From the NCBI RefSeq assembly GCF_024502345.1, contig NZ_JALDNN010000001.1: DNA of 64,000 nt. One strand, given 5' to 3'. A program made the translations under genes and the position numbers. The first letter of the stretch is position 1. Every line of letters starts with the position of its first letter. Source of the stretch: Escherichia coli (GTDB taxonomy: Bacteria; Pseudomonadota; Gammaproteobacteria; Enterobacterales; Enterobacteriaceae). The notes beneath the pieces were generated by a model. The model ran no database searches. It worked only from the letters and a program-made list of their open reading frames with translations, and was not told the origin of the DNA. This document shows, piece after piece, positions 1 through 20,628 of the stretch.

Positions 1-46
1 AATAAGTGTCCGGATCAGCGTGGAATCCGCACAAATCCTGCATCGG

Positions 47-487
47 TCAGCGTCCCACCTGTGCAGAGGCCCAGCGCACGATGTCCTGCGAGCCCATGGC
101 GCCTGCCTGGCGGGCGATCTCACGTCCGCCCTGGAACAGGGCGAGCGTCGGAATGCTGCGGATACCGAACTGCGCGGCCAGGTGGGGCTCAGCCTCGGTG
201 TTCACCTTTGCCAGCCTGATCCCGGGTTCGAGCTGGCGCGCGGCTTGTTGAAACTGCGGCGCCATCATCTTGCACGGCCCGCACCAGGGCGCCCAGAAAT
301 CGACCAGCAGCGGCAGATCGCTGCGCTCCACGTGGCGCGAGAACGTCGCCGTCGTCAACTCGATGGGCTCGCCGGTGAACAAGGGCTGCTGGCAGCGGCC
401 GCAGTTGGAACGATCCGCGAGCTTGGCGGCCGGCACGCTGTTGATGGACTGGCAATGTGGGCAGACGATGTGGAGTTCATTTTTCAT
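47..487 (-). CDS. Thioredoxin, TrxC-like with N-terminal zinc finger (LHR Trx-GI)
   Basis: 146 aa. CPHC...CGRC zinc-finger pair followed by the WCGPC active site. 11-nt overlap with the upstream orf11. Confidence 0.9.
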   Translation of the reverse strand: MKNELHIVCPHCQSINSVPAAKLADRSNCGRCQQPLFTGEPIELTTATFSRHVERSDLPLLVDFWAPWCGPCKMMAPQFQQAARQLEPGIRLAKVNTEAEPHLAAQFGIRSIPTLALFQGGREIARQAGAMGSQDIVRWASAQVGR

Positions 488-1628
488 GGTTCGCTTGCTT
501 GGACTGCGGTGAGGTTGCCTCGCTTCGGATCACCGACATCGCCGACCAATTTACGCCTTTGATCCAATCGTTCCCGTCTTCGCTCACGCCGGCATCTTCC
601 ACGTGAGCCGCAATGAAGGCTTCGGCTTGAATGAGCCCCGCTCTGACAGCATCTATCTTATTAGGCATCCGCAGGATTTCAGCAGCGCAGCCTGCATCCA
701 GCCCATCCACCCGGATAAGCAGAAAAATGCGGCGCCACAAGTGCGGCATACCCTTCATCAGGTCGAATGCAAATGCGAATTCGCTCGATCTGTCACCAAT
801 TTCCTCCTGTTCGGCGATTGCTGCTGGGTCGGGAAGCCGACTATCAGCCATGACGTCGGCCAGGCTGAGTGCGTCATCAGGCTGATAAAACTCGTAGAAC
901 TCTTCCTCTACCATGGCCTCCGCCATGTCCTGCGCATCCGCTTCGACCGGCGCATCCAGCGAAACGGCCTCGCCATATTGCCGGCTGTTTGCCACTTCGC
1001 GATCAATGACGGCAAAAAGATGCTTCAAAAGATCGAGGTAAGCGGCATTTTCTTCTGGAACGGATGTCCATACCGATTCAGCCAGAGCAATCGCTTCGTC
1101 CACCACGTCGTGCAGCGTCGGATAATCGCGAGGCAAATCACCGGCGGCATGCAGATAAGCCAACTCGCGTTGCGCAACGGCCTCAACCTTCGGCAGCAGC
1201 GTCTCGATTATCCCGCGTGCTTGCTGGACGACAGAGGCAGGTTGAGTGTCGATCCGCGCCTTGAGCTCGCGCAAGCGTTCACGACGCGCCTTACGCTTGA
1301 TTTGATCCTGAGCGCTCAGCCGATCAAAGTGCTTCTTGGCCTGCCGGAACAACGCCTGCGCTAGCATGTGCGCGAGAGGCGTCAGATCGTTATGCGATGC
1401 AGTGACGCTGACGATTTTTTTGCCCGGCAAGTGCATGTGGCCACTGGCCGTTAAGCGAGATCCTTTTTTCGCGCGTTCGAGGACGATTTGAAGACGTACC
1501 GAATCTTCGGAGCGCTTTTCGATCAGCGGCTTGAGAGCGGGTTCAACCGCTTTTTCTACAGACATTCGCCAAGGTTCATGAAATTCTTTTTCGACGAGTC
1601 GATAGCTATATTGTATACGCATGCTCAA
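477..1628 (-). CDS. LHR orf11, hypothetical protein (possible HPF/RaiA-like N-terminus and sigma70 region-4-like C-terminus)
   Basis: 383-aa ORF in the conserved LHR position between hdeD and trx. Acidic central linker. Domain guesses come from motif patterns only. Confidence 0.7.
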   Translation of the reverse strand: MSMRIQYSYRLVEKEFHEPWRMSVEKAVEPALKPLIEKRSEDSVRLQIVLERAKKGSRLTASGHMHLPGKKIVSVTASHNDLTPLAHMLAQALFRQAKKHFDRLSAQDQIKRKARRERLRELKARIDTQPASVVQQARGIIETLLPKVEAVAQRELAYLHAAGDLPRDYPTLHDVVDEAIALAESVWTSVPEENAAYLDLLKHLFAVIDREVANSRQYGEAVSLDAPVEADAQDMAEAMVEEEFYEFYQPDDALSLADVMADSRLPDPAAIAEQEEIGDRSSEFAFAFDLMKGMPHLWRRIFLLIRVDGLDAGCAAEILRMPNKIDAVRAGLIQAEAFIAAHVEDAGVSEDGNDWIKGVNWSAMSVIRSEATSPQSKQANHEK

Positions 1629-1720
1629 GTCCTTTAGGGTTGTCCGCCCAGGTGAGTGGACCCGGGTGATTGGATATGTTGATTTTCAAAGATGATCTTA
1701 CGGTTTGGTTTTTCACGCCC

Positions 1721-2332
1721 TTACCTCTGACGCGCTTTGCGCAAACGCCAACTAAGAAGCAAAAGAGTCATACCGAAGATCGCAGCATGGAAACCCAATA
1801 CCCAGCCCGCGGCCAGAAATGATTCGATCGGGCGGGTAAAAAACATCCATAGGATGATCGCACCGAGGAGCACGGAAAGCAGCCCGCTGAGGGCAAGCCA
1901 GATCTCGCCCTTGATTTCCCGGCGCAGACGAACGGCGGCGGATATCTCCAGCATACCGGTGAAAATTGCCCAGAATGCCACGCTTACCCACAAGAAATAG
2001 GCCAACGCCAAAGTGGCAGCCAGAGGGGCAACTACCACAACGACACCGGTGAGTATGCCGACGATGCCGCTGAACAACAGCCAGCCCCAGCGCTGCTTTT
2101 GCCGCATTTGCCGCACCGCTGCAACCAGGTTGAACGCACCATTGACCAAAGAAAATGCGCCGAACACTATCGTCATGGCGAACAAAGCCGAGTGTGGCAT
2201 CCAGAATGCGAGGACTGCAAAAATCAACGCGAATATGCCGCGCAGCGCAAACAACCACCAATTTTGGGTCAGTGAACACACGGCATCGGCAGGGTTATCC
2301 GCATTCGAATCGGCGATGGTATTTGCATTCAT
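1721..2332 (-). CDS. hdeD: HdeD-family acid-resistance membrane protein (HdeD-GI)
   Basis: 203 aa with about six hydrophobic helices and repeated xGxxxxxxG helices typical of HdeD/DUF308. In the LHR position. Confidence 0.85.
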   Translation of the reverse strand: MNANTIADSNADNPADAVCSLTQNWWLFALRGIFALIFAVLAFWMPHSALFAMTIVFGAFSLVNGAFNLVAAVRQMRQKQRWGWLLFSGIVGILTGVVVVVAPLAATLALAYFLWVSVAFWAIFTGMLEISAAVRLRREIKGEIWLALSGLLSVLLGAIILWMFFTRPIESFLAAGWVLGFHAAIFGMTLLLLSWRLRKARQR

Positions 2333-2384
2333 GCGATATCTCCTTGATGGATCATGAGATCAGGAAAATCAAGCCTTCATCGCG

Positions 2385-2411
2385 AAGAGAGGGGCTATTC
2401 GCCCCTCTCTT
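2385..2411 (-). terminator. GC-rich hairpin just downstream of yfdX2 (no U-tract)
   Basis: Perfect 11-bp stem AAGAGAGGGGC/GCCCCTCTCTT with a 5-nt loop, 7 nt after the yfdX2 stop. Confidence 0.35.
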
Positions 2412-2417
2412 GCGGTT

Positions 2418-3305
2418 TTAGAACAGCTTTGACAGTCTCGCCTTGATTTCATCGAGCCAGCCTTTTCCGCTCCCGCCTCCGGCCGTCTTTTCCTTGACTT
2501 TCTTGAGTTCAGAGTACAGGGGCTCAAAGTCCTTCTTTTTGCCATAGCCCAGCAGTTCTGCCATTTCCAACTGCTGCCGGGCTTCGTTTAACAAGTCCTG
2601 CAGGCGTTCACCGGACGCCTCGCTGCGCTGGCCATCTTCTGTCAAGGTCTCGGCGCGCTTGACGAGCAGTTTGGCGCGCAGGATGGGCAGCGGGATGACG
2701 CTGAGTGTCTCGACGAGCGTGCCGAGCGCCAACTGCAGCGCGGCCTTGGCCTCTTCGATCTTGCCCTGATCGATCAGCGGCACGACGGATTTCACGGCTG
2801 CCGGGTAAGTCGCCAGAGGGATGTTGGTGACCGCAATCACGATTTCGCTGGCCAGCAATGCCAACACGCGACGAGCGCGTTGCACCTCGCCATGTTTGAG
2901 GGCATCCAGCGCCTCGTCAGTCATCGCCTCAACGGTTTCCGTGTTGGCGAACAAGTCGTGCACGATGGTGCGCACATCAACGGGGGCCAGGGCGAGCGTG
3001 GGTTCGCGTGCAACGATCAGCTCCAGCTTTCCCGTCACTTCGGCCAGCGTTGCCAGTGCTCGCGCGGATTCTTTTTCGTCCAGGGCCGCCAGCGCTGATT
3101 TGGTCAGCGCCAAGGCCGAGACGGCCTCATCGAGGACTTGTTTACGTTTGTCTGCCGCTTGCGAGTCCGTTTCCTTCTGAACCTCAGGCTGTACCTCCGT
3201 GACGACTTCAGGCTTGGGCTCTGGTCTGGCAGGAAGGCTGCTTACCGCGGCCTGTTCGTTCGTGCCTTCGTTGATCGCGTTGGGATTCGATGTTTGCTCA
3301 TTCAT
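2418..3305 (-). CDS. YfdX-family protein (YfdX2), no obvious signal peptide
   Basis: 295 aa. Paralogous to the next gene (shared ...LGYGKK.DF.P......K..E.K.AGG.SG.GW.DE.K.R..KLF C-terminus). Polar, Pro/Glu-rich N-terminus. Confidence 0.85.
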   Translation of the reverse strand: MNEQTSNPNAINEGTNEQAAVSSLPARPEPKPEVVTEVQPEVQKETDSQAADKRKQVLDEAVSALALTKSALAALDEKESARALATLAEVTGKLELIVAREPTLALAPVDVRTIVHDLFANTETVEAMTDEALDALKHGEVQRARRVLALLASEIVIAVTNIPLATYPAAVKSVVPLIDQGKIEEAKAALQLALGTLVETLSVIPLPILRAKLLVKRAETLTEDGQRSEASGERLQDLLNEARQQLEMAELLGYGKKKDFEPLYSELKKVKEKTAGGGSGKGWLDEIKARLSKLF

Positions 3306-3349
3306 GGTGATATGCCTCGTATGAGATAGTGAAAATAGGGGAATCTATT

Positions 3350-3398
3350 GGGGCCGACTGCGAATATCGCGAGACTGACCGATGGAGCAGTCGGCCCC
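3350..3398 (-). terminator. GC-rich hairpin downstream of yfdX1
   Basis: 12-bp stem GGGGCCGACTGC/GCAGTCGGCCCC with a 25-nt loop, 10 nt after the yfdX1 stop. Confidence 0.3.
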
Positions 3399-3407
3399 TT
3401 CATCACC

Positions 3408-4322
3408 TCAAAACAGCTTTTGGATGCGCGTCTTCAACTCGTCGAACCATCCATTGCCGCTTTTGCCACCAGCCGACTTTTGCTCAATGGACTTCACCTG
3501 ATCGAAGATGGGTTTGAAGTCCTCCTTCTTGCCATAACCCAGGATTTGCGCCAGCTCGATCTCCGTGCGCACGGACGACAGCAAGGTGCTGAGCTCCTCG
3601 TTCTGCTTGGCATCGCGCTTGTCAGTCTCGGCCAGCTTTTCAGCTTTTGCCATCGCGGCTTCGGCCCGTAGCACGGGCAGAGGGAGTACAACTTGGGTGA
3701 CCACCAGCGTGTTCAGTGCTCGGGCGAGTTCCGCCTTGGCGTTGTCGATCTTGCCGCTGTCGATGAGCCGTGCGGCCGACTTGATCGCTGCCGGGTACGT
3801 TGCCATCGGCAGGTTGTCGGTTTCGATCACGATTTCGCTGGCAAGATTGGCAACAATGGGCCGTGCCTTTTGCACCTCGCCATCATCCAACAACTCCTGA
3901 GACAACTTGACCGCTTTCTTGACCGATTCCACGTCGGCGTGGATGTCATGGGTGATGACGCTTACATCGACGGGCGCCAAAGCAATTTTTGGCTCACGCG
4001 CCAATACCAGTTCCAGCTTTCCGCTGGCCAGTTCCAGCGCAGCGAGCGCCTCCTTGGTCTTCTTTGCATCAAGGAGGATCAATGCCTCATGGGTCTTGGC
4101 CAGCGCAGTGATTGCATCTTGGGCGAGTTCGGCGCGCTTCTTCGCGGCTTCCCGGGCGACCTTGTCATCTACCTGTGGCAGCGCCGCTTTGGATGCGGCA
4201 GAGGGTGCTGCAGCACCTGGGCTAGAACCTGCCGCCGATTGGGCCAGAGCCGGTCCGCTCAGTCCGACGACGACCGCCAGGGCAAGTGCGGAGAAGATGT
4301 ATTGTGGCTGTTTGATATTCAT
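3408..4322 (-). CDS. YfdX-family protein (YfdX1) with Sec signal peptide
   Basis: Start chosen at MNIKQPQYIFSALALAVVVGLSGPALA-QS (signal peptide with an AxA site). YfdX C-terminal motif shared with YfdX2. Confidence 0.85.
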   Translation of the reverse strand: MNIKQPQYIFSALALAVVVGLSGPALAQSAAGSSPGAAAPSAASKAALPQVDDKVAREAAKKRAELAQDAITALAKTHEALILLDAKKTKEALAALELASGKLELVLAREPKIALAPVDVSVITHDIHADVESVKKAVKLSQELLDDGEVQKARPIVANLASEIVIETDNLPMATYPAAIKSAARLIDSGKIDNAKAELARALNTLVVTQVVLPLPVLRAEAAMAKAEKLAETDKRDAKQNEELSTLLSSVRTEIELAQILGYGKKEDFKPIFDQVKSIEQKSAGGKSGNGWFDELKTRIQKLF

Positions 4323-4343
4323 GATGTTGGACTCCAATTGAAG

Positions 4344-4802
4344 TTAATTGACTGAAATTTCAATCTGTTTCGGTTTGGCTTGCTCGGCCTTGACAAGCCG
4401 CACTTCCAGCACGCCGTCTTTCATGGAAGCCGTCACCTTGGTCGGATCAACGTTGTCAGGCAAGACAAAGCTGCGCACAAAGCGGCCATACGCACGTTCG
4501 ATGCGGTGGAACTTCTTGCCCTGCTCCTCTTTTTCCAGTTTGCGCTCGCCGCTGATGGTGAGCACACCGTTTTCCGCGCTGACGCGCACGGCATCCTTGG
4601 GGACCTCCGGCAGATCCAGCTTGAGGAGGAATGCGTTCTCATCCTCGCTGATGTCCACCATTGGTGCCCAGTCCGCCGTGGTCATGGCTTCGTTGCCGGT
4701 ACGGGCGCCCTGTCGCTGGGGTGTCCGTCCCAACATCGTCGCCAGGCGGTTTTGCAATTCATCCAGTTCCCGGAAGGGGTCCCACGGAGTCAATGCAGAC
4801 AT
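4344..4802 (-). CDS. Small heat-shock protein, alpha-crystallin/Hsp20 family (sHSP-GI)
   Basis: Start chosen at MSALTPWDPFRELDELQNRL. Contains the alpha-crystallin domain (...AENGVLTISGERK...GRFVRSFVLP...DGVLEV). Confidence 0.9.
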   Translation of the reverse strand: MSALTPWDPFRELDELQNRLATMLGRTPQRQGARTGNEAMTTADWAPMVDISEDENAFLLKLDLPEVPKDAVRVSAENGVLTISGERKLEKEEQGKKFHRIERAYGRFVRSFVLPDNVDPTKVTASMKDGVLEVRLVKAEQAKPKQIEISVN

Positions 4803-4896
4803 ATCGGTTCTCCTTGAACAATGCCGGTGAATTGGATGACGCACCGAACAGAGCCGCCGGCTCACTCTGAATAGCGCCTATTACTTTTCGTTTCTA

Positions 4897-6213
4897 TCAA
4901 GAACAGGCCATGAGCAAGAATAGTCCATGAAGCAATAGCGCATGTCCCATCTCGTGATAGGCCACGGTTTCCCGCTCCTTCGGATTGAGCACACGGTTCT
5001 TCCTTTCCAGGCCGGCCACGATGCGCTCGATGGCGGCGGTGAAGTCTTGCAGCTCCACAGCCTGCGCCTTGCGCCGCGTCGCGTTCAGCGCTGCTTCGTT
5101 CACGAGATTGGCCAGATCAGCGCCGGAAAAGCCGGTGGTCAACGCCGCCACCTGTTCCAGATCTACACCGTGGGCCAGGGTGATCTTCTTGACATGGACC
5201 TTCAGGATATCCAGGCGACCTTTCTTGTCGGGACGGTCCACCAGCACCTGACGGTCGAAGCGACCGGCACGAAGCAAGGCCTGATCGAGGATTTCGGGGC
5301 GGTTGGTGGCGGCGAGGATGATCAGCCCGACCGAGCTGTCGAAGCCATCCATTTCGGTGAGCAACTGGTTCAGCGTCTGCTCACGCTCGTCGTGTCCGCC
5401 GGTCGGTCCTCCGACACCGCGTGCGCGGCCCAAAGCATCCAGCTCATCAATGAAGATGATCGCCGGCGCCTGCCCGCGCGCCTGCTCGAACAGGTCGCGC
5501 ACGCGCGCCGCACCCACGCCGACGAACATCTCGACGAACTCCGAGCCTGAGATGGAAAAGAACGGTACCCCGGCCTCGCCCGCCACGGCCTTGGCCAGCA
5601 GGGTCTTGCCCGTGCCCGGCGGGCCAACCAGCAACACACCTTTCGGGATGCGCGCGCCGAGGCGGCCGTAATCCTGCGGGTTCTTCAGGAAGTCGACGAT
5701 TTCGACCAGCTCGGCCTTGGCCTCATCGACACCCGCGACATCGGCAAAGGTGACGCCGGTGTTCTTCTCCATGAACACCTTGGCGCGGCTCTTGCCGATG
5801 CTCAGGAAGCCGCCCATGCCCTGCTTCTCGGCGAAGCGGCGGAACAGGAAGAACCAGACGCCGAAGAAGGCCACCGCCGGCAGAATCCAGGAGAGCACAT
5901 CACGTAGCCAGGTGCTTTCCACCACCCGCGCGTAGGGCACCTCGTACTTGGACAGCCGCTCGGCCAGGTCGGGTTCGACGCGAGTGGCCACGATGGTGGT
6001 CTTGCCCCGGCTGTCCGGCGATTTCAGGCGCCCGGTGACCGTGCGGTCCGACACCAGCACTTCGGCGACGCGCCCCTCGGCCAGCGCCTTCTCGAATTCG
6101 CTGTAGGGCACGGGCTCGACGGTCTTGGCCGCCTGCCAGTAGTTCTGCAGCGTCAGCAGCAACAGGCCGGCGACGATCCAGTAGCCAATGTTCCATTGAT
6201 CTTTCTTTTCCAT
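4897..6213 (-). CDS. FtsH-family AAA+ metalloprotease, 3'-truncated immediately after the HEXXH motif
   Basis: N-terminal TM helices, Walker A GPPGTGKT, Walker [12 protein letters not shown] region. Ends ...YHEMGHAL then 12 unrelated residues and a stop, so roughly the last 180 aa of a normal FtsH are absent. Confidence 0.8.
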
Positions 6214-6240
6214 GGGCAATGTTCCTCGCAAGTCGTGCCG

Positions 6241-7701
6241 CTAGAGAATGGGGGTGAACAGACGGGCCACCCCGTCGCGCAAGCGCATGGCCAGCGGGTG
6301 GGCGCGCAACGCCTTCGCCGATATCTCGCCCGACACATCACGAGCGGCATCAAAAAGGGATGACAGCCGCGTAGACAACGCGGTGTCGTACACCTCCACA
6401 TTGAACTCGAAGTTGAGGCGCAAACTGCGCGCATCCCAATTGGCCGAACCCAGGCAGCACCACGCTCCGTCTACCAGCATCAGCTTGCTGTGGTCGAACG
6501 GGCCAGGCCGTTCGAAGATGCGCACACCGTGCTCCAGCACCTGCCAGTAGTGGGCGCGCGCGGCCCATTGCACCGTGGGATGGTCGCCGTTTGCGGGCGT
6601 CAGCACGTCGATACGCACGCCGCGCAACGCGGCCGTGCTCAGCGCCGCGATCATCGGCTGATCGGGGACGAAGTAAGGTGTCCAGATGCGCACCGAATGC
6701 TTCGCCGCGCTCAAAGCGCCCATGAAGGTCCAGCGCATCCGGTCCAGGGCCTCGTCGGGACCGGCCTCGATGCCGCGCGCCCAACTGGTTCCCGGCTCAT
6801 CAGCCGTTACGGGCGGTTCGCCCCAGAAACCCTCGTTGAGCCGCTCGCCCGTGGTATCGCACCAATCATCGGTGAAGCTCCGCATCAGATGCTCCACCAC
6901 CGGCCCGCGCAGACGAAAGTGCAAATCGTGACAGGCCTGGTCCGGCGCATCGGGCCGCCAGTACGGGCTGAAGATGTTCAATCCGCCGGTGAAACCCGTC
7001 TCGCCATCGATCACCAGCAGCTTGCGGTGATTCCGCAGATGCGCGGCATGCAGGCGCGCGGGAATCAATGTCGGGTTGAACGTCGCCGCCGGAACGCCGG
7101 CGCGCTGCAAGGCGCGGTAGGCGCTGCGGGGCGTCCAGCGGGCATACACGTCGTCGATCAGCACCCGCACTTGCACGCCGCGCTCATGAGCCCGGCGCAG
7201 CGCATCGACGAACTGCGCCCCGATGCCTTGGCTGTCGAAGATGTACGAGGTCAAGGCGACGCTGTACCGCGCCGATTCGATGGCGGCGAGCATGGCCGGG
7301 TAGGCCTGCTCGCCATCGACAAGCGGCTCGATGCGGTTGCCGCCGGTCAGCGACTGGCCGGTGGCGCGTCCCACCAGGTGGGCCAGACCGGCAAGTGGCG
7401 GCGATACAGCCTCGGGTATCGTGGGCGAGAGATCCTGCCGAACAGCAGGATCTGCCCCCGGGAAGAGCCGCCGCGCCCGCCGCTGGTAACGGTTGATGCC
7501 GAACAGCCCATACAGCAGCGAACCGCCCAGCGGCAGCAAGGCGATCAGCAGTACCCACAGCGTGGCCGATCGAGGGTCACGCTTGTAGATGACCGCATGC
7601 CCCGCTGTGGGGATAGCGACCGCCAGCGACACGAGGGTGGCTGCCCATGTCAGCCCATTGGGGTCGGACACGACAGCCTCCCATCGCTCAAGATTCGCCA
7701 T
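6241..7701 (-). CDS. Cardiolipin synthase / phospholipase D family protein
   Basis: Start chosen at MANLERWE (ATG 7701). Two N-terminal TM helices and two HKD motifs (HRKLLVID..., HSKLMLVD...). 14-nt overlap with the clpK stop. Confidence 0.9.
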   Translation of the reverse strand: MANLERWEAVVSDPNGLTWAATLVSLAVAIPTAGHAVIYKRDPRSATLWVLLIALLPLGGSLLYGLFGINRYQRRARRLFPGADPAVRQDLSPTIPEAVSPPLAGLAHLVGRATGQSLTGGNRIEPLVDGEQAYPAMLAAIESARYSVALTSYIFDSQGIGAQFVDALRRAHERGVQVRVLIDDVYARWTPRSAYRALQRAGVPAATFNPTLIPARLHAAHLRNHRKLLVIDGETGFTGGLNIFSPYWRPDAPDQACHDLHFRLRGPVVEHLMRSFTDDWCDTTGERLNEGFWGEPPVTADEPGTSWARGIEAGPDEALDRMRWTFMGALSAAKHSVRIWTPYFVPDQPMIAALSTAALRGVRIDVLTPANGDHPTVQWAARAHYWQVLEHGVRIFERPGPFDHSKLMLVDGAWCCLGSANWDARSLRLNFEFNVEVYDTALSTRLSSLFDAARDVSGEISAKALRAHPLAMRLRDGVARLFTPIL

Positions 7702-10537
7702 CCGCTGACTTCTTCTTGCGCGCAGGCTTGCTCGCGTCGCCAGGCGGTGCCTCGGCCACGTCCGCGGCATCGGGCTTTTCAGGCTCAGCCGACTTCGCGG
7801 GTGGCTCCTGGCGCTCGAAGACCACCCGTTCGGCCTTGTCGTCCCAGCGGGCGTTGGCGTGATCACCCTTGCCGATACCGCCACCCAGCATCTCGCGCGC
7901 CAGCGCGGTTTCCAGCTCGCTGCGGATCAGCCGCTTGAGCTCACGCGCGCCGAACTCGGGCTTGTAGCCTTCCTCCGCGAAGTGGTCGATCAAGGTCTGA
8001 TCGAAGGTCAGCGTCACGCCCTGGCTGGCGGCGTTGCGGGCCACACGATCAAGCTGCAGGCCGACGATATGGCGGATTTCCTCCTTGCCCAGCGCATGGA
8101 AGACGATGATCTCGTCGATGCGGTTGATGAACTCGGGGCGGAAGTGTCCGCGCAGCACGTCCATCACCTCGGACTTGGTCTTCTCGTATTCCTCGCCGGC
8201 GGCGCCACCGGCCTTCAGCCGACGCTGGATGATGTCCGAGCCCAGGTTCGAGGTGGCGATGATGATGGTATTGGTGAAATCCACCACCCGGCCCTTGCCG
8301 TCGGTGAGCCGCCCGTCGTCGAACACCTGCAGCAGGATGTTGTAGACGTCGGGGTGCGCTTTTTCGATCTCATCGAGCAGCAACACGCTGTAGGGCTTGC
8401 GACGCACCTTCTCGGTGAGCTGGCCGCCCTCGTCATAGCCCACATAACCCGGAGGCGCGCCCACCAGGCGTGCCACGGCATGGCGTTCCCCGTACTCGGA
8501 CATGTCGATGCGCAGCAGCGCACCTTCATCGCCATAGATGGACTCGGCCAGCGCCTTGGCGAGCTCGGTCTTGCCCACGCCGGTCGGCCCAAGGAACAGG
8601 AAAGTCGCCACCGGCTTGTCGCCTTCGCGCAGGCCCGCGCGCGACAACCGCACGGCATCGGCCACCGCGCGCACCGCTTCGTCCTGGCCCACCAGGCGCT
8701 CATGCAGCCGCTGCTCCAGATGCAGCAGCTTCTCGCGTTCTTCCACCGTCAGCTCGTTGACCGGAATGCCGGTCAGGCGCGAGACGATCTGCGCGACATG
8801 CTCGGCCTTGACTTCGGCGCTGCCCGAGGCGCGCTCGCGTTCCCATTCCTCGACGAGCTGCTTGAGTTCAGTCTCCTTGGCCTCGATGCGCTTGCCCAGC
8901 TCGGCGGCCTTGTCGTACTGCTTGCGCGAGGCCATGTAGTCCTGCTCACGCCGCAACTGGTGCAGTTCGGACTCCAGCTCCTGCACCGCCACCGGGCGAG
9001 CCGTGGCCGACAGCTTCACGCGTGCGGCCGCCTGGTCAAGCAGGTCGATGGCCTTGTCAGGCAAAAAGCGCGCGGTGATGTAGCGGTCCGACAACTCGGC
9101 GGCGGCGATGATCGCATCCTCGGTGATGCTGACCTTGTGGTGCGCCTCGAAGGTGTCGCGCAGGCCGCGCAGGATCATCATGGTCTGCGCTACCGTCGGC
9201 TCGGGCACCATCACCGGCTGGAAACGACGCTCCAGCGCGGCGTCCTTCTCGATGTACTTCTGATACTCGTTGAGCGTGGTGGCGCCGATCAGGTTCAGTT
9301 CGCCGCGCGCCATCATCGGCTTGAACACGTTGGCCACGTCCAGCCCGCCTTCGCCGCCACCCTGGCCTGCACCGACGATGGTGTGCACTTCATCGATGAA
9401 GAGAATCATCTCGCCCTGGTGCTCGGTCACTTCCTTGAGCACCTTCTGCACGCGCTCCTCGAACTCGCCGCGATACTTGGCGCCTGCCACCATGGCGTTG
9501 ATGTTGAGCTCGACCAGACGCTTGTCGCGCAGCGTCTCGGGCACTTCACCGGCGACCATGCGCTGCGCCAGCCCTTCGACAATGGCGGTCTTGCCGACGC
9601 CGGGCTCACCGATCAACACCGGGTTGTTTTTCTTGCGCCGGGCCAGCACCTCGATGGTGGTCTCGATCTCCTGCGCACGGCCGATGACTGGATCGAGTTT
9701 GCCCTCGCGCGCCATCTTGGTGAGGTCGCGCGAGTATTTATCCAGCTCGGGCGTGTTGGTCGGCGTCTCGGCGCGGCCATCCTCGGCCCCTTTGCCGACC
9801 ACCTTGCTTACCTGCTGGCGCAGCGCTTGCGGCGTGAGGCCGTAACGGCGCAGCAGGTTGGCCGCCAAACCTTCGCCTTCCTCAGCGAGCCCGATCAGGA
9901 AATGCTCCGGCCCGACATAAGAGTGGCCGAGTTCGTTGGAGGCCACGAAAGCGCGGCTGAGCGCGTCCTTGACCCGGGGCGACACGCCGACTTCGCCCTC
10001 GAACGGCTTCTCGCCGCGCTTGGCTTCGGATTCGATCTGTCGCTTGAGGTCATCGACCTTGATCTTGAACTGTCCCAGGATGGTCTTCACCACGTCGCTG
10101 TCGGATAGCGCCAGCAGCAGGTGTTCGGTATCGACTTCGGCGCGCCCGAACTCTGCAGCGTGTCGGGCGGCCTCCTGCAATAGGGCCTCGGACTGTTCGC
10201 TGATACGGCTGGCGAGCCCACTGCCGCGACGGCGCGCAGTGCCCGTACCGGCCGGGGCGGGTTCGCCGAACGAGGCATCGACCACCTCGTCGGTATCGGC
10301 CGCCATGGACGGCGAATCGTCACCGATGCGGAAGAAGTCGCTGCCGAGGAAGTCTTCGAACAAGCCGCTGCGCGAGCCAAACAAGGCTTCCAGCGGCGAG
10401 ACGGTGCGCTTTTGCTGGCGCGCCAGTTGGCGATAGTGATCGTCACACAACAGCATGGTGCTGTGGCGACCATTGAGATTGGCTTCCACCCGCACCGTGG
10501 CGGGCTGGCCGCAGACCTGGCATTGTTTTCTGGCCAT
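7688..10537 (-). CDS. clpK: ClpK / ClpG-GI stand-alone AAA+ disaggregase
   Basis: Start chosen at [10 protein letters not shown] (949 aa). N-terminal CxxC...CDDH zinc module, Clp_N repeats, two AAA+ modules ([16 protein letters not shown]) and a middle coiled coil. Confidence 0.95.
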
Positions 10538-11204: not shown

Positions 11205-11239
11205 GTCACACCTCCAGAACAAAAATTGAAGACTCTCGC

Positions 11240-11521: not shown

Positions 11522-11569
11522 ACCACCCCCACAAGTTCCGTCGTCACGCGGCCTCGCCTGAGGAAGTTC

Positions 11570-11621: not shown

Positions 11622-11949
11622 CATCCAGCGATCTGCTGGCCGATTGATGTGACTCAAATCTTCAAGGACGGTATGCCAGGGCGGGCCGGTCCGGCGCAGG
11701 GGACGGTGGGTTGATCGGGACCTTGCGGGCGCCGCCCACGGCCGCAGATCAAACACCGATCCTCACGTTGTAACCGAGCGCCCGCAGCCCCTTGCTCGTG
11801 CGCATGTTCCTTGGCGGAAACTCGTCTGGGCGCGCCCAGCCGACGATTTCCCCGAGGCTGCTCAGGCCAATGTGCGGAATTGCCCAGTCGTCGCTGCGGA
11901 TCGCGTTCCAGAGTCGGGCCGAAAAACCTCCGTTGCCCCAGACAACGTA

Positions 11950-11957
11950 GTTCAACA
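11950..11957. repeat. 8-bp target-site duplication (left copy) GTTCAACA
   Basis: Identical octamer abuts both ends of the 472-bp IS66-family remnant. Confidence 0.7.
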
Positions 11958-12429
11958 GTATCCGTCCTGCCAACACACCTTCCCGACACCGCCGCCGAAG
12001 GCCATGGCCCATCAAGCGGATTTTCCATGCCCCCTCAGCGCCGTACCTACAGCAAATCTTTCAAGGCCCAGGTCATTCAGGAGTGTTCTGAACCCGGTGC
12101 CTCCATCGCAAACATCGCCTTGGGCTACAGCCTCAATGCCAACCTCGTCCACAAATGGATTCGGCTGCATACCCAGAAAACCACGGCTATCCAGCCAGCG
12201 TTCATCCCGTTGCCTTCTCAAATGCTCGGCGCGGGATCGCATGCTCAAGTGCGCTGCTGCGATCATGAGTTTGATCCAGTCGGCCCGTAATAATGGGCAC
12301 GATCCGTATGCCTATCTCAAGGATGTGCTGACACGGTTGCCGACGCAGCGGGCGAGTGAGATTGCAGAGCTGCTGCCGCATAGGTGGCATCCGGCATAGT
12401 CGCGCAAGACGGTCTGCCCGCACGCTTAC
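11958..12429 (+). mobile_element. IS66-family element, internally deleted (472 bp): tnpA 5' part fused to tnpC 3' end
   Basis: TnpA-like MPPQRRTYSKSFKAQVIQECSEPGASIANIALGYSLNANLVHKWIRLH (from 12027). From ~12226, in another frame, the TnpC C-terminus ...AAAIMSLIQSARNNGHDPYAYLKDVLTRLPTQRASEIAELLPHRW*. Imperfect inverted ends GTATCCGTCCTGCC / GTAAGCGTGCGGGC. 8-bp direct repeats flank it. Confidence 0.7.
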
Positions 12430-12437
12430 GTTCAACA
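12430..12437. repeat. 8-bp target-site duplication (right copy) GTTCAACA
   Basis: Immediately follows the ...CGCTTAC terminus of the IS66-family remnant. Confidence 0.7.
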
Positions 12438-12654
12438 GCTCAAGCACCGTCCGCCCTTCGCGGGATCGTTGCCGCCAGAGCCACACGCCGAACTTTTCCA
12501 CCTTGTCGTCGCCGGCCTGCGGTCAGTCAGGCAAGCCCAGGTGCTTGTTTTCCTGCTTGATCGCGTGGTCTCGGATCGCGTGCACCCGGGAAACGGCATC
12601 CACGAACTGCCACCATCTCTTAGCTTGGCGGGGTCAAGCCAGCCGGGATGCCCG

Positions 12655-14497
<1,843 letters not shown>

Positions 14498-14505
<8 letters not shown>

Positions 14506-16000
14506 TCCATCTTCCTATCAATCGAATGAACGCAGTGGTCAGTGGTGCCACCCTGCTTTTTTCCAATCCACAACGCTTTTCCAGCTCCCAGCGCCTAGAC
14601 GTTATGCCTGTCTGTACATCCTTCAGCATCGCTGCAGTCAGGCGACGGATCTGATACTCGCCGACGGACTCGGCATAGCGATCCAGGAAGGTGCAGCAAA
14701 GAGGCAATTGATCGAGACGGTGCTCGACTGATGCCCGATGGGGTAGCTGCTGCAGGAACCAGTTGCGACTCCTGCGCGGAAGGCCCAGGTCTTCTTCGCT
14801 ACCTCTACCAATCCGGATCAGCAGGCGCACCAACCTTATGTCACGCGCTCGCCAGTCGATGTGGCTGTTGTTGCCCTGTCGGCGCTGCCTGACCTGGTTC
14901 GCAACCATCAGCCAGTGTCGGTCATGACGATAGAGCCAGGCGTAACATGCCCCTGCTCCGTCTTGCCTGGCTGCCTTGGCTCCACCGTGATTAGCCAGTG
15001 CTTGCAGCCAAATGGCTCGGTACTGCTGCTTTTGCTCAAACTCAGCAGGGAGCAGCTGCACTGACCGCTCGGAGGCAAGGTCGACCTGGCGAGTCTTCGC
15101 CTCGCTGATCAGCTCGCCAGCATGCTGGCCAGGGCGCAGGCTGGTCCAGACGATCAGATGCTGCAGCGCACTGAATCCCTTGCGATGCTTCCTGAACATC
15201 GCCAACAGCCAAGGTGGAGGCTCTCCGGATGTCAGCAGACCGTTCGCAGCAAGCCAATCCCTTTGATGGGATGCCAGGATCTTCTCCCAGATGACTTCAG
15301 CCCTGACCTGCCGGCCTCGCCTGGCGCCGCACTCTGTAGCCAGGTACCGGTACAGGTTGGTCCAGCGTCCGTAGCCAGGCGATTGCACCTCTTCGAGCGC
15401 CAGCAGCTGCATAGCAGCCTTGGCGAGCCTGATAGCCTCTTCGCCCACGGGACTCACGCGAAGATCACGGGGCAGAAACAGTGGAGAGGCTGTATGAAAC
15501 TCGTGCCGCTGCGCTCGACGGAACGGGATAGGTGAGTTCAGGAGCTGACAGCCATGCTCGGGACAGGCATCTATCCCTTGAATCTGCCAGCTGCGCCGCC
15601 AGTAGGGTTCACCGTAGCGCGCAGCCATATCTTCAAAGCAGATCGGGCAGTAACGCAGCCAATCGGGCCACTTGACCAAGGCCGTCGAGGCCCCAGACAG
15701 ACCAATCGTCGGCCGGTCGGGAGCAAGCATGGCCTGAAAAAGATCGGTACGGCGCTCCGGCGGAATGAAAGGGGCATAGAGCGGGAACAGCGTGTGATTC
15801 AGGATCATGCCTTCCGCATCCAAGCCCGTGTTGTTCGCCAACGCAGTCAGGTGTGTGGGCAGATCGGTGATCGCGGCAACCTTGCTGTCACCGAAAAGCA
15901 TGTGCAGCAAGGTCTTGTGGCTGCCTATCCCCAGATGTACCCGGCACCGGGCAATACCGCTGTAAAGCAGTTCGTCCGGGTAGAGCCTGGGGAAGTACAT
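14498..16000 (-). CDS. tnsD: TnsD/TniQ-family target-site selector
   Basis: 500 aa. TniQ N-terminus FPRLYPDELLYSGIARC and zinc-finger-like CPICF...CPEHGC. Same position and size as Tn7 TnsD (recalled as 508 aa). Confidence 0.85.
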
Positions 16001-16001
16001 G

Positions 16002-17612
16002 TCAGCTCGCTCTCAGCAGAGGCCGTAGATCGAGGATCAAGCCAGCCTGCTTGAATCTGTCATAGGCCTCGCTTTCAGGCCCATCGGCATAACGTCGGCG
16101 CAGATCCTCCTCGGATAGGCACCCCCACTCCGTCCGCTTAACTCTGGAAATGCCGGGCCTCTTGGGAGCGTCCTGCGCGAGGTAGGCCGTGGCCTTGTGA
16201 ATCAGGGCCGCCAGCGGGATGTCCGGATTCTCCGCCAACAATTCATCGGCCATGGGAATGGCGATGTCCCTCGGGATTTCCATACCTTCGAGCAGGGCGG
16301 CCAACCGCTTTGCCTTGTCATCAGCCGGAGGGGCCGGTGGTTTAGGTTGGGGGACGCTATCCAGAGAGCGAGTCAGGGTCAGCAACCGTCCCTCGATCTC
16401 TGGCATCAGCAGGTCGTCATATTTGGCGATCAGCTCGGGCCTACCGCTCCGCAAGGCCGCCAGCATCGGATGGACCGGTTTGAACTCGTCCTCGAAAACC
16501 CTGCGCAGCAACAGCGGCTTAATGCACTCGACACCTGTCACTATCGCCCGGATCTGCGCCAGCGCGAACAGCTTGATGACGATGTCCATGACCCCTTGGG
16601 TGAGGTCGTACATCGTAGCCTCCAGTTCATCATCCAGCGGCGCCGCATTTCGCAGCCACTGATACTTCCAAAGCCGCTTCAACAGACGCTTCCAATGCTC
16701 GTCCCGAGGCAACCTATCCCAGCGGATGCTGCCCAACCCGGAGACCCGCCGAGCAGCCCGGAACGTGCGCTGGAAGAACTTGCTGGCCCGGTGGGTGCCG
16801 ACCTGAATGATCGGAACACCGATGGTGTTCACCAGCGACACGAAGAAATTGTGCATTTTTTCGGCACCACCGGAGCGTGCCTCGTTGAGGTTCTGAACCT
16901 CGTCGATGATCAGCACTCCGAGCGTGTGCAGATTGGCCAGCTGGCACATGGATGCCAGCAGACGTTTGGTACCCAGCTTCTTGCGTCCGTGGCTACGGCT
17001 GTAGTGGGTACCCAGGATCTTGTCTACTTCGTTGAAGAAGCTCAGGCACAGCTCATCCAAGTCACCGTCAATTGGGCAGTCGATCTTCAGGTAGACCAGT
17101 TGGGTGATGTCGTAATCAGGGTGATGGAGAGCTTGGGGGTACATGCCCAGAATCCGCTCCAGCGTGCGCGTCTTGCCGCAACCGGAGCAGCCGAACAGCG
17201 ACAGGCTGTTGGCCGTAGAGGAGACACTCTGGTACACCGCCGCATCCAGATCCTCCTCCTCGACACGGCGATAGCCATTCTGCAGGTGCGCATACCAGGC
17301 ACCGCTGGCCGGATTCCGACCGATGTACCCTTGACGGATCATCAGGCTGATCTTGCTCTCCAGCTCCAAGTGATGGCTCAGCGGCTGGAAGAAGCCGTGC
17401 AACAGGCGGGCAATCGCATGTGCCCTGAGCCGACCATCCAGAAGCGCCTCCTGCGGCTCGAAACCGGGAAGCTGCTGCAATAGATCGACCACCTCCTGCA
17501 GATCAGGAATCGGAGGCAATGCGCTGATGAGCGGATTGTCCTGATACTCGGGAAGCTGCTGCTCCTGGTAACGCGCCAGGGGAATGACTCCGCGCTGGAA
17601 TTCTTCAGTCAT
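16002..17612 (-). CDS. tnsC: TnsC AAA+ transposition regulator
   Basis: 536 aa. Walker A GCSGCGKT, Walker B VLIIDEVQ. Follows tnsB with an 8-nt overlap. Confidence 0.9.
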   Translation of the reverse strand: MTEEFQRGVIPLARYQEQQLPEYQDNPLISALPPIPDLQEVVDLLQQLPGFEPQEALLDGRLRAHAIARLLHGFFQPLSHHLELESKISLMIRQGYIGRNPASGAWYAHLQNGYRRVEEEDLDAAVYQSVSSTANSLSLFGCSGCGKTRTLERILGMYPQALHHPDYDITQLVYLKIDCPIDGDLDELCLSFFNEVDKILGTHYSRSHGRKKLGTKRLLASMCQLANLHTLGVLIIDEVQNLNEARSGGAEKMHNFFVSLVNTIGVPIIQVGTHRASKFFQRTFRAARRVSGLGSIRWDRLPRDEHWKRLLKRLWKYQWLRNAAPLDDELEATMYDLTQGVMDIVIKLFALAQIRAIVTGVECIKPLLLRRVFEDEFKPVHPMLAALRSGRPELIAKYDDLLMPEIEGRLLTLTRSLDSVPQPKPPAPPADDKAKRLAALLEGMEIPRDIAIPMADELLAENPDIPLAALIHKATAYLAQDAPKRPGISRVKRTEWGCLSEEDLRRRYADGPESEAYDRFKQAGLILDLRPLLRAS

Positions 17613-19692
17613 CCTCTTCCTCCTTGAATATCAGGTCACTGAGATCTGGGAAGGCATAATCTTCCTGCTTCTCGCCCCGCAGTGGGATCACCTCGGCTGG
17701 CTTTTCCTGCTGTGCTTTATCCGGTTTGAATGCTGTTTTCTGGCGTTCCTGGCGCTTTTCCTGCTGCTTGTTCTCGCGGATCTGGGTTCCCAGATCCTTC
17801 GTGGTCATACCCGTTTTGAGCGGACTGGCATCCTCTGCCTGGGCAACGATGGACTCGATCTGCTTCAGAAGATTGCCTCTCTCTACCAAAGCTTCCGCCG
17901 CCGCGTTGGTATCGCTACGCCGTTCCTCTCTGGACAGCAGCCAGACATCCCAGAAGGTCATCCCCCTGAAGCGTCGACTGCGGTCGGCAAGATCGCAAAC
18001 CCAGTAGTCCTTGAGACTATTGGACGGCCGCAGGTAGATGTGGTCGGCGCTACGCGGATCGTATGCGACCGTTACCCCTGTCGGCCGGCGCCCCTGGCCT
18101 CGGTGAAACCAACCCTCCCTGATTGCTTCCTGGCAGGTGTAGAAGCAGCCGAACAGTCTGATTCCCAGCTCCGAAACCGTGGCCGACTCATGGGGCAAGA
18201 GATTTATCCGCACCAGCTCCTCGGGCGCAGTACGTAACCGGCCGGTCAAGTTGGCCAAGCCCCAGTTCCACAGCATGACCGGGATGGCTGGCAGATCGCC
18301 CGGCATACCAGAGGTTCTGTCGTATTTGCTCAAGGTATGAAAGTTGTTGTGGTAGAGGATGCCGGCAATGATGATCTGGGTGAACTCGGGCAAGGTCAGA
18401 CTGGCATCAAGTCTGTAGTCGTGGCCACCCCGCTTCCGGCTGGTGGTGTCCTCGACCACACCGCTGGCATAGGGCTTGAAACGCTCCTGCACCGTCCGGA
18501 AATAACGCTCGACGATCCCCTTGGCATCTCCTCGCCTGGCCGGTGCATTCTCGATGCGAACGCCGAAGGCTTGGGAAAATGCTTCCACCTTGGTGCCATT
18601 CAGTTCGCCCTTATCGGCCAGCACCACATCCGGCAAGCCTTTGACCGGCCAGTCGCTGGCATCGATCTCCACGCTATACTGGCGGCAATACTCAACCTTG
18701 TCGGCGACCGTGTTGGCCAATGCCACCATGGCACTGACCCAGGAAGGTCCCTCGAATCCGACGTACATACCAACGACCATGCGGCTGAACACGTCGATCA
18801 CCATGTAAACGACAGGCCTGCCGACGATAAGGCTGCGATCATGTTCTGAAACCAGATAGATATCGGCGATGGTGGCATCGATCTGGTAGCGGTATCCTGG
18901 CCCCAGTGCCTCGGTCGTCGATGTACTGCTGAGCGGTCGGAAGTCCTTGGCAAAATCCACTGCGGACACCCTGCATGGCAAGGTGTCGGTGAAGTGATAT
19001 TCGCGCCCATAGAAGTAACGGAACTGCCCCAATGTAGGCAGTTCGGAGGTCGGCAGCTCCGTCAGAACAGCACGGAGCAGATTCAGCCCGGCGGCGTAGG
19101 CATCAGGAATGGACGGATGTTTTTCCTTGAGCAAACGTTCCTCGATGACCCGGCGAAAAATGCGCTCGATGTCCGGCGTGACATTGCTCCCTTTCCCCTC
19201 CATCACCACTCTGGGCCTGCCCAGCTTGGCCTGGTTCGGCTTTCTGCGCTTGCCACGGGCGCCCGAGTTGACATAGTCCGGCAAGAGGGCATTCCTGCAC
19301 ATGCCTCGCTGCCAGTAGCGCCTCAGTAACCTATACACCGTCTGATTGGTGACACCATGGCGCTCCATGATGCCTCTGACAATGAGCCCTCTGGGGCGCC
19401 GCACGAAAAGCTGGGGGTTGTGCACAAAATCCGCCAGCATTCCCCAAGCTTCATCACGCTTCTGCTGATCAAGGGAACCTTCCTCAACCTCCCGTAGGAC
19501 TGTTTCCTCGAAGGGATCGGCAATGCTCTCCAGCTCCCGCTCCATGATCAGACGCTCCAGCTCTACAATCGATATCGGTTCGGGCAACGCCGTGTCCGAA
19601 TCGATATCGATCCAGATTGCCTGCTCGGTACCGGACCAAAGCAGGCGCTTTCGCAGTTCCCCCATCCGGAACACCTGATTAACGGGCAACAC
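17605..19692 (-). CDS. tnsB: TnsB DDE transposase
   Basis: 695 aa (GTG start). Colinear with recalled Tn7 TnsB: YRLLRRYWQRG, GPGYRYQIDATIADIYLV, PDVVLADKGE, RRGDAKGIVE, DYRLDASL. Confidence 0.95.
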   Translation of the reverse strand: MLPVNQVFRMGELRKRLLWSGTEQAIWIDIDSDTALPEPISIVELERLIMERELESIADPFEETVLREVEEGSLDQQKRDEAWGMLADFVHNPQLFVRRPRGLIVRGIMERHGVTNQTVYRLLRRYWQRGMCRNALLPDYVNSGARGKRRKPNQAKLGRPRVVMEGKGSNVTPDIERIFRRVIEERLLKEKHPSIPDAYAAGLNLLRAVLTELPTSELPTLGQFRYFYGREYHFTDTLPCRVSAVDFAKDFRPLSSTSTTEALGPGYRYQIDATIADIYLVSEHDRSLIVGRPVVYMVIDVFSRMVVGMYVGFEGPSWVSAMVALANTVADKVEYCRQYSVEIDASDWPVKGLPDVVLADKGELNGTKVEAFSQAFGVRIENAPARRGDAKGIVERYFRTVQERFKPYASGVVEDTTSRKRGGHDYRLDASLTLPEFTQIIIAGILYHNNFHTLSKYDRTSGMPGDLPAIPVMLWNWGLANLTGRLRTAPEELVRINLLPHESATVSELGIRLFGCFYTCQEAIREGWFHRGQGRRPTGVTVAYDPRSADHIYLRPSNSLKDYWVCDLADRSRRFRGMTFWDVWLLSREERRSDTNAAAEALVERGNLLKQIESIVAQAEDASPLKTGMTTKDLGTQIRENKQQEKRQERQKTAFKPDKAQQEKPAEVIPLRGEKQEDYAFPDLSDLIFKEEEDD

Positions 19693-20506
19693 TGCTCAGC
19701 TCCTGATGCATTTGATGAGAGTTGGCAACCAGGTCTTTCGGCTTCAGCTCCCGGTAAGGAGTGTCAAGATCGAAAAGGAAACAGTGCCGGGCCAGCAACT
19801 GGCGTAGCCAATAGAGCGCCTGACCGGCCTCCAGCTGGCCGGAGGTATCCAGTCCTTGGGCAATAGCGGTCAGCTTCCGGTCTGGGTGACGCTGAAACTC
19901 GAGCAGAAACAGCTGCTGGTAATGGGCGAGATCGTCCTGAGCGATGTCGCCTTCAGCATGGGCAGGATAGAGCCATTGGATATTGGCAAATGCCACCTTG
20001 GATACCTCGCGCTCCGTAACGATGACCCAGGGAATACCTTTTTCCTGCCAGTAGCGCCTTTCAAGCTCAAGCCTCTCGATAACTTCAGGCTTCTGCAGGT
20101 CGGTACTGTACTTGGCCTGAATCGCGATGCTCGGGCGCTGAGGATCTTCGAAATCCACCAGAAAGTCGCTGGTCAGTACCTGCGGGGTACCCTTGTAACA
20201 ACCGTGGGGCAGGCCAAGCTCCTCGGCGATGCGCACCGTATCTTCGACCCGCATCGGAAACTGTTCACGGATATCGGTGACATGGGGAGACCGATCCAAG
20301 GTCAGGAAGATGGCCAGTTCAAGATCGGATAGAAGATGGTGTAAACGCCGGGTCTTGCTGCCAGGCAGGCGGTGGGAGCGACCCAGCGAGGACACGTCCC
20401 TTGTGTAGATGAACGGCTTGTAGTCTGATCCCTGGCCTTGACCACGCCCGTCCTTGAGCCTTCTATCGATCTGGGCCTGGGTCAGCCCCTTGAATGTTCC
20501 AGACAT
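19679..20506 (-). CDS. tnsA: TnsA endonuclease-like transposase subunit
   Basis: 275 aa. Colinear with recalled Tn7 TnsA: RRLKDGRGQGQGSDYKP, GRSHR, HHLLSDLELAIFL, DIREQFP, TSDFLVD, LELERRYWQEKGIPW. Confidence 0.95.
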   Translation of the reverse strand: MSGTFKGLTQAQIDRRLKDGRGQGQGSDYKPFIYTRDVSSLGRSHRLPGSKTRRLHHLLSDLELAIFLTLDRSPHVTDIREQFPMRVEDTVRIAEELGLPHGCYKGTPQVLTSDFLVDFEDPQRPSIAIQAKYSTDLQKPEVIERLELERRYWQEKGIPWVIVTEREVSKVAFANIQWLYPAHAEGDIAQDDLAHYQQLFLLEFQRHPDRKLTAIAQGLDTSGQLEAGQALYWLRQLLARHCFLFDLDTPYRELKPKDLVANSHQMHQELSSVAR

Positions 20507-20566
20507 GAGAAAGCCTGCCCCCGCTGTGTCGATGACCTCAACATAGCGGATGCAGGCTCAGAATGA

Positions 20567-20628
20567 AACTTTATTTATACGGATGATACTTTATTTATAC
20601 GGATGAACCTTTATTTGCATCCCACACA
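20567..20628 (-). repeat. Tn7-family right-end: terminal TGT(GT)GGG and three tandem 20-bp TnsB-binding-type repeats
   Basis: Minus strand reads TGTGGGATGCAAATAAAGGT TCATCCGTATAAATAAAGTA TCATCCGTATAAATAAAGTT TCATTC. The repeats have a 20-bp period (C at 20569/20589/20609). The terminus is at 20626 or 20628. Confidence 0.8.

Follow-up and report, generated by a model that had tools for sequence, protein, structure and literature searches.

The heat-resistance locus (LHR), also described as tLST or TLPQC-1, lets Escherichia coli, Salmonella and Klebsiella survive heat in the cooking range as well as chlorine. The literature mostly presents it as a 'transmissible' island among assorted mobile genes, treated as a unit 'flanked by mobile elements', and leaves the mobile unit undefined. 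TLPQC-1 of plasmid pSSE-ATCC-43845, for example, was given as positions 189,272-211,036, with the flanking mobile genes trimmed (Nguyen 2017, PMC5347186), and a 2025 survey of 48,183 genomes mentions neither Tn7 nor transposons. Among open-access full texts, we found a link between LHR and Tn7 in two. According to a review, Tn7 elements can flank the island (Kamal 2021, PMC8290217), and Almblad et al. (2021, PMC8012707), in their passages on the element, assign tdcA of Pseudomonas aeruginosa CF39S to a Tn7-like transposon and describe the transposon's remaining genes as syntenic with the LHR. Those passages of the main text concern one isolate, and in them we found no ends, duplications, attachment site, empty sites, E. 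coli, Salmonella or plasmids. More generally, open-access full texts yielded nothing on the ends, the duplications or the empty sites, on the use of attTn7 or on how frequent the element is in Enterobacteriaceae, subscription-only papers being outside our scope. The bare linkage of LHR and Tn7 is thus already published (PMC8012707, PMC8290217), whereas the defined unit appears to be new within the open-access literature. Here we analyse a stretch of 64,000 nucleotides of E. coli DNA (assembly GCF_024502345.1, contig NZ_JALDNN010000001.1), referred to below as the window, together with related loci. We are highly confident that window positions 1-20626 make up the right-hand part (~20.6 kb) of a Tn7-family transposon of ~29 kb that carries the LHR as cargo and was inserted by Tn7-type cut-and-paste transposition. 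The order of the element is right end, tnsABCDE, LHR cargo, left end.

In its architecture the element closely follows Tn7. Five tns genes stand in the identical order beside the right end, TnsA and TnsB can be aligned with their Tn7 counterparts over the whole length, and the TGT...ACA termini are accompanied by contiguous repeats at the right end and spaced repeats at the left. Also shared are the 5-bp duplication and insertion ~25 bp past the glmS stop codon with the right end nearest glmS, although the window copy itself is not at attTn7. The differences lie in sequence, composition and cargo. The proteins are roughly half identical to those of Tn7 (as judged by eye on alignments), with TnsE much more diverged; the G+C content (GC) is ~57-60%, and the closest relatives occur in Pseudomonadaceae. 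The cargo of Tn7 is a class 2 integron, whereas here it is a stress-tolerance island of ~19-21 kb. The gene content of this island is that of the described LHR/tLST/TLPQC-1: a helix-turn-helix (HTH) regulator gene, the gene of the small heat-shock protein (sHsp) sHsp20, clpK, cls, ftsH, sHsp-GI, yfdX1/2, hdeD, trx, kefB, psiE, htpX and degP, in the same order (Mercer 2015; Nguyen 2017, PMC5347186; Kamal 2021, PMC8290217). A GGDEF gene lies between kefB and psiE, which makes the island similar to the CF39S element as that paper describes it. Tn7-like relatives with defence cargo at glmS share the termini, the glmS site and 81-95% TnsD identity, but in place of the LHR they have genes for type I restriction-modification or for methyltransferase plus McrBC.

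The transposition machinery occupies the minus strand of the window at 12883-20506, where Pfam matches and the list of open reading frames (ORFs) identify five consecutive intact ORFs as tnsA-E. A first-pass annotation of this DNA, made from the letters alone, had proposed tnsABCDE reading leftward and a TGT right end with 20-bp repeats, and both were confirmed by Pfam and repeat analysis:

19679-20506, minus strand: tnsA, intact, endonuclease subunit (Pfam TnsA N and C domains)
17605-19692, minus strand: tnsB, DDE transposase (Pfam Mu-transposase C/HTH)
16002-17612, minus strand: tnsC, AAA+ regulator (Pfam AAA_22 and TniB)
14498-16000, minus strand: tnsD, glmS/attTn7 selector (Pfam TniQ and TnsD)
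12883-14505, minus strand: tnsE (Pfam TnsE_C, E 5.5e-44)
20561-20626, minus strand: right end, TGT terminus plus three contiguous TnsB-site-like repeats with 20-bp spacing
20627-20631, no strand: right copy of the target-site duplication CATTT, the 5 bp adjoining the right end

TnsA aligns over its full length with Tn7 TnsA (1f1z, E 2e-60), and the residues aligned to E63 (SDLELA), D114 (SDFLVD) and K132 (AIQAK), which we take to be the catalytic triad of Tn7 TnsA, are all identical. The full-length match of TnsB to Tn7 TnsB (7pik, residues 4-691, E 2e-187) conserves the motifs IDATIADIY, LADKGEL and GDAKGIVE, in which the DDE residues presumably reside, while TnsE matches Tn7 TnsE (5d16, E 1.7e-10) in its C-terminal domain only. 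The right terminus is ...CCTTTATTTGCATCCCACA, with its last base at 20626. At this position the element end reads ...GCATCCCACA; read inward, it is TGTGGGATGC, followed by three 16-mers of the AAATAAAGnnTCATCC type just inside the terminus, 20 bp apart (positions 11, 31 and 51). Two positions had been considered for the end, of which 20626 was borne out and 20628 was not; CATTT flanks both ends. The tns and LHR blocks are GC-rich, as had been noted, with 0.54-0.68 over window 1-20000 vs 0.45-0.50 to the right, in 20001-24000.

Directly beyond tnsE and on the same strand, as the annotation had it, follow the LHR genes: the HTH regulator, sHsp20 and clpK, then the remaining ones. If the LHR is cargo, the left end should lie on its far side. 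A second copy of the terminal sequence is absent from the window in a search allowing up to three mismatches; accordingly, no inverted terminus was found in 1-12882, just as had been reported, nor was any TnsB-site repeat, and a left end between tnsE and the LHR was rejected. The expectation that the island runs on past the window edge held in that its remainder was found in a same-site genome; the edge itself, bases 1-31, turned out to be the end of an IS21-family insertion sequence (IS) within kefB-GI. This same-site genome, NZ_LR536430, is 99.8% identical over window 6-21500, and since the identity extends into the right flank, its element occupies the same chromosomal site. Leftward it continues with the rest of IS21, kefB, a GGDEF (tdcA-like) gene, psiE, htpX and degP, and ~520 bp past degP, in the predicted place, lies the inverted terminus TGTGGGATGCAAATAAAGT, with one mismatch. 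As a chance control for the terminus pair, none of 100 shuffles yielded two matches. Three spaced TnsB-site-like repeats mark the left end (positions 11, 157 and 212), and the 5 bp outside each end are CATTT, the direct repeat that had been foreseen. At this site the element measures 29,079 bp, IS21 included.

The precise empty site anticipated in LHR-negative E. coli exists as well, with a single CATTT. We queried with 800 bp in which both flanks were joined through one CATTT, and the site was uninterrupted over at least 80% of the query in 29 E. coli genomes; several LHR-negative ones are 100% identical across the junction. A three-way alignment of the empty site with both junctions, left and right, shows agreement base for base. 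The target of the insertion is a YagK/YfjJ-like gene in an accessory region, ~9.5 kb from the tRNA-Asp gene (aspV) at 30156-30232.

Could a Tn7-like element with its own left end between tnsE and the LHR simply have come to lie next to an independent island? The IS66-family debris between tnsE and the first LHR gene might be the scar of an independent insertion, and most LHR loci elsewhere are without tns genes. However, apart from the absence of a terminus or TnsB-site repeat in 1-12882, the empty site lacks both blocks together, and six independent insertions, that in NZ_LR536430 included, have identical 5-bp repeats spanning tns plus LHR. The other five are:

E. coli G3/10 chromosome: 29,080 bp, duplication CCAGT
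plasmid of strain 873.10, inside an IS1: 26,933 bp, duplication GACGT
E. coli strain 81 chromosome, inside an integrase gene near tRNA-Phe: 28,920 bp, duplication GCAAC
E. coli TC24 and an ST536 mussel isolate, attTn7: 27,957 bp, duplication AGCCC
S. Senftenberg 775W plasmid pSSE-ATCC-43845, IncHI2A, 181,528-210,425: 28,898 bp, duplication GCTGC

Complete copies always have the matching left end beyond degP, and in none of them is there a left end or truncation between tnsE and the LHR, which agrees with the first-pass annotation. Because the duplications enclose both blocks, mere adjacency is already refuted, and we assign it hardly any probability. LHR as Tn7-type cargo, the central proposal of that annotation, is supported by the left end, the duplication, the empty site and the other insertions. 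The TC24 and ST536 copies have their right end 25 bp downstream of the glmS stop codon and their left end beside lpfA, documenting a TnsD/attTn7(glmS) route that the annotation had not foreseen. Plasmid pSSE-ATCC-43845 was typed as conjugative by MOB-suite, and its published TLPQC-1 starts one base after the tnsE stop. The G3/10 right end falls within a coding sequence annotated as a UvrD-helicase-domain protein (locus coordinates 34614-36846), beside an ATP-dependent nuclease gene; this helicase/nuclease pair may be a Gabija-like defence system.

Relatives of the element provide a second view of its cargo. A TnsD scan with one genome per species returned 20 loci at 81-100% identity, mostly from Pseudomonas, Stutzerimonas, Aquipseudomonas and allied genera, plus Pantoea. 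At 13 related loci the right end stands ~25 bp after a gene ending ...NLAKSVTVE*, which we take to be the GlmS C-terminus, in agreement with the glmS annotation in the E. coli locus. The LHR is carried only by the two closest loci (99-100%), those of a Pseudomonadales metagenome-assembled genome (MAG) and Pantoea sp. GD03673, both at glmS, whereas the 92-95% relatives have type I restriction-modification or methyltransferases plus McrBC as cargo. One related element, in Pseudomonas songnenensis, is complete at 15.1 kb with duplication AGTGT. Similarity between LHR-bearing and other elements ends ~97 bp past tnsE, which puts the cargo boundary near 12786. This break, together with the relatives that carry other cargo, indicates that the LHR is a genuine and exchangeable cargo; by this comparison of sequences, it is cargo in the strict sense. 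Two cases at glmS show further peculiarities. Stutzerimonas marianensis scaffold 14 has two related elements (23778-45277 and 48039-69538) ~24 kb apart, with identical glmS-type right flanks and identical protein identities, which could be a tandem duplication including glmS. At locus L026, the 1.5 kb downstream of glmS contains three Tn7-type termini (4199, 4546 and 5716), and the tnsA gene is truncated, which looks like stacked or nested insertions at attTn7.

How common is the unit? Of 5,426 complete E. coli genomes, 148 have the LHR core (HTH to clpK) and 37 the tns module (40 records, 50 places, 30 of them on plasmids). At least 99% identity is seen in 29 tns records, and several different sites have copies of the 7,744-bp tns module that are 100.0% identical. 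The module is contiguous with the LHR in 37 of the 40 records; of the remaining three, one is another Tn7-like element and two are loci where just 146 bp of the tnsE 3' end are left. Records whose clpK/LHR core is at least 95% identical, that is, of this lineage, number 39, and 128 belong to the ~86% LHR1 type. The LHR1 type is without tns genes and its left-end region is reduced to the innermost 78 bp beside degP. Thus, the expected co-occurrence held in one direction, nearly every tns module being joined to an LHR, and failed in the other, as LHR1 lacks tns. The linkage is limited to one LHR lineage (clpK identity of at least 95%). In PLSDB, the LHR 5' region with part of the spacer has matches in 1,302 plasmids (1,105 from Klebsiella), but the tns-plus-junction query is covered to at least 80% in only 41; the tnsE 3' end is kept in 93 and the full left end in 60. 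Acinetobacter plasmids (PLSDB H119, H153 and H198) have the left end at 98% identity, tnsA/tnsB at ~90% and sHsp20/HTH beside a TnsA-domain gene, so the element family reaches Moraxellaceae.

Some of these results, and some individual copies, weigh against a picture in which the LHR generally travels as an intact transposon. The tns genes are present in 37 of the 148 LHR-positive complete E. coli genomes, about a quarter, and are missing from 128 of 167 E. coli LHR records and from most of the 1,302 LHR-type plasmids. The left end is complete in only 17 E. coli records; in 132 others, the ~520-bp left-end region is reduced to the 78 bp beside degP. In S43 and pKL53-L the left end was lost to IS5/IS110, and the 1332KP copy is truncated by IS1. 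The chromosomal copy of 2273-PO3 has both ends, but its flanks are mismatched (TGTAC vs GGTGT). Finally, the left end of the source genome itself lies outside the window and is presumed from near-identical genomes, which would place it ~8.4 kb beyond window base 1. The tns-less majority implies that much LHR spread has proceeded by plasmid transfer or IS events and not by Tn7-type transposition. The idea that every LHR copy is tns-linked is ruled out by tns-less LHR1, for example in strain H2, where the locus is bounded by IS1, IS4321 and Tn3 debris; likewise, S43, pKL53-L, 1332KP and 2273-PO3 rule out that all linked copies remain bounded. In 2273-PO3 the termini are at 5145 and 34030 (locus coordinates), and its right flank is shared with pKL53-L, with the S43 chromosome and with a MAG contig from Aeromonadaceae. 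The mismatched and shared flanks of this copy point to recombination between copies or integration of plasmid DNA.

By analogy with Tn7, TnsA and TnsB would excise the element at its TGT...ACA termini, with TnsC activating them and coupling them to a target selector. TnsD would direct insertion 25 bp downstream of glmS (attTn7), and TnsE is most likely the selector for non-att sites, including the site in the window, where insertion of the whole unit into the YagK/YfjJ-like gene would have left the CATTT duplication. In Tn7, wild-type TnsABC alone is essentially inactive, and TnsE sends the transposon into conjugating or mobile DNA. The non-att sites here comprise plasmids, an IS1, an integrase gene and the accessory region near tRNA-Asp. 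TnsE-mediated targeting of plasmids is plausible: the tnsE gene is present, and the location of 30 of 50 E. coli tns places on plasmids is consistent with it. An alternative is that the non-att insertions were made by TnsABC with TnsD at pseudo-att sites, or by untargeted TnsABC. TnsD is intact, the family clearly uses it at glmS, and several non-att sites are chromosomal. Yet non-att right flanks match the attTn7 flank at 13-23 of 60 positions, close to chance, in a crude fixed-register comparison in which even a true glmS site shifted by 1 nt (S. marianensis L010) scores low. Moreover, the places hit in chromosomes are mobile islands, an IS1 or an integrase gene, the plasmid share is high, and activity of TnsABC alone would be at variance with Tn7 biology. 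On balance, insertion without TnsE seems unlikely to us, although it retains some probability. A pseudo-attTn7 at the window site specifically was rejected, with 17 of 60 matches (about chance) in the same register-sensitive comparison.

Another question is whether the element still moves. Transposition may belong to the past, perhaps in another host, with spread in E. coli now being passive through conjugative plasmids, islands and homologous recombination. In favour of such a fossil, many copies have lost an end or carry IS, and the present one combines an IS21 in kefB with a truncated ftsH. LR536430 has a frameshift in tnsA, ABWA45 and C 236-04A have a tnsC deletion, and one copy has the mismatched flanks that recombination between copies would give. 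On the other hand, the window has all five tns ORFs at full length, with 100.0% identity to copies elsewhere; clean duplications occur at five or more different target sites in E. coli or Salmonella, and for one of these an E. coli empty site is matched at 100% identity. Identical tns genes, clean duplications and an empty site together indicate recent transposition within Enterobacteriaceae, and we consider exclusively passive spread improbable, roughly a one-in-four matter. Judging from identical copies at different sites, the transposon is probably still active, and as a current carrier it would explain the movement of the LHR between chromosomes and plasmids.

A bolder proposal is that this transposon was the ancestral vehicle of the whole enterobacterial LHR/tLST radiation, acquired from a high-GC pseudomonad-like donor. 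The tns-less E. coli LHR1 loci and ~1,100 Klebsiella plasmids would then be decayed derivatives, and the intact form would still be hopping between attTn7 and conjugative plasmids. Hints in this direction are that tns-less loci retain the spacer with IS66 debris and 78 bp of left arm past degP, and that one K. pneumoniae plasmid (H118) keeps ~1 kb of the tnsE 3' end. We put this forward tentatively, as a possibility somewhat short of even.

The conceptual advance is modest, in that Tn7-family elements are known for varied cargo and the link was noted before. A defined unit nevertheless gives a concrete mechanism of movement, with ends that can be stated, a duplication of 5 bp, and two routes, one to attTn7 (glmS) and one to plasmids. 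It leads to the prediction that any enterobacterium could receive heat resistance at its glmS site, and that any conjugative plasmid could likewise take it up. The published limits of the island change as well, for example those of TLPQC-1 in S. Senftenberg 775W, where the mobile unit is 181,528-210,425 with duplication GCTGC. In addition, the tnsE-LHR junction and the left end make a simple surveillance marker that can be scored in any genome.

The cargo as far as it lies in the window, beginning at its left edge, is as follows:

1-31, no strand: terminal bases of an IS21-family element, matching the IS21 end in NZ_LR536430 and G3/10; istAB lies just left in NZ_LR536430
32-42, minus strand: kefB-GI stub, start codon plus ~3 codons (comparison with the same-site genome)
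47-487, minus strand: trx-GI, LHR thioredoxin (ORF; RefSeq annotation of the 99.8%-identical locus)
477-1628, minus strand: LHR hypothetical gene between trx and hdeD (ORF; annotation of the near-identical locus, as for the next four)
1721-2332, minus strand: hdeD-GI
2418-3305, minus strand: yfdX2
3408-4337, minus strand: yfdX1
4344-4865, minus strand: sHSP20-GI
4897-6231, minus strand: ftsH-GI, truncated pseudogene, annotated as incomplete in NZ_LR536430 and G3/10
6241-7884 (annotated span 6241-7671), minus strand: cardiolipin synthase / PLD-like gene (cls) (ORF; annotation)
7688-10597, minus strand: clpK (ClpG-GI) disaggregase, longest ORF given (Pfam AAA_2, AAA_lid_9, Clp_N and ClpB_D2-small; annotated clpK)
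10635-11243, minus strand: sHsp20, first small heat-shock protein of the LHR (Pfam HSP20, E 2e-28)
11240-11614, minus strand: HTH regulator, first LHR gene (Pfam HTH_17, E 1e-17)
11615-12882, no strand: tnsE-LHR spacer, 1,268 bp, with IS66-family debris and plus-strand ORFs at 11811-12399

The spacer fragments (HTH_Tnp_1 and DDE_Tnp_IS66_C) bear out the ~1.2 kb of IS debris first described between tnsE and the LHR. The core module of the LHR (HTH, sHsp20, ClpK/ClpG-GI and sHsp-GI) is present according to Pfam and the annotation of the near-identical locus. As regards the envelope/oxidative module, yfdX1/2, hdeD and trx are in the window, and kefB to degP are seen only in same-site genomes. Window 1-31 is unlike the uninterrupted kefB of three other copies (L003, L004 and L028). 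Since IS21 inserted ~10 nt (about codon 4) into kefB-GI, the window begins inside an IS that interrupts the cargo. The 31-bp IS21 tip has 4 differences from the corresponding junction in LR536430 and G3/10. Likewise, ftsH-GI is ~1.3 kb here vs 1,830 bp at full length in four other copies (L003-L006). From the sequence, the truncated ftsH and the split kefB may reduce the stress-resistance phenotype of this copy of the island.

The cargo also appears to be a mosaic. Window 4937-20626, tns genes included, shares 99.0% identity with the plasmid copy of 873.10, whereas 12-4905 (trx to sHsp-GI) is only 87% identical to the copies of strain 81 and p873.10. Within the latter segment, 1759-4905 is 97.1% identical to a Pantoea copy that has an LHR1-like gene order and no cls/ftsH. 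This pattern suggests recombination between LHR lineages within one transposon backbone.

Outside the element (window 20632-42001), the DNA passes into a low-GC accessory region. To the right of the element, the same-site genome has genes annotated as type III restriction-modification, helicase and DUF4391. Besides the tRNA-Asp gene at 30156-30232, there is a second one at 38380-38456, followed by tRNA-Ala and tRNA-Ile, which suggests an rRNA operon.

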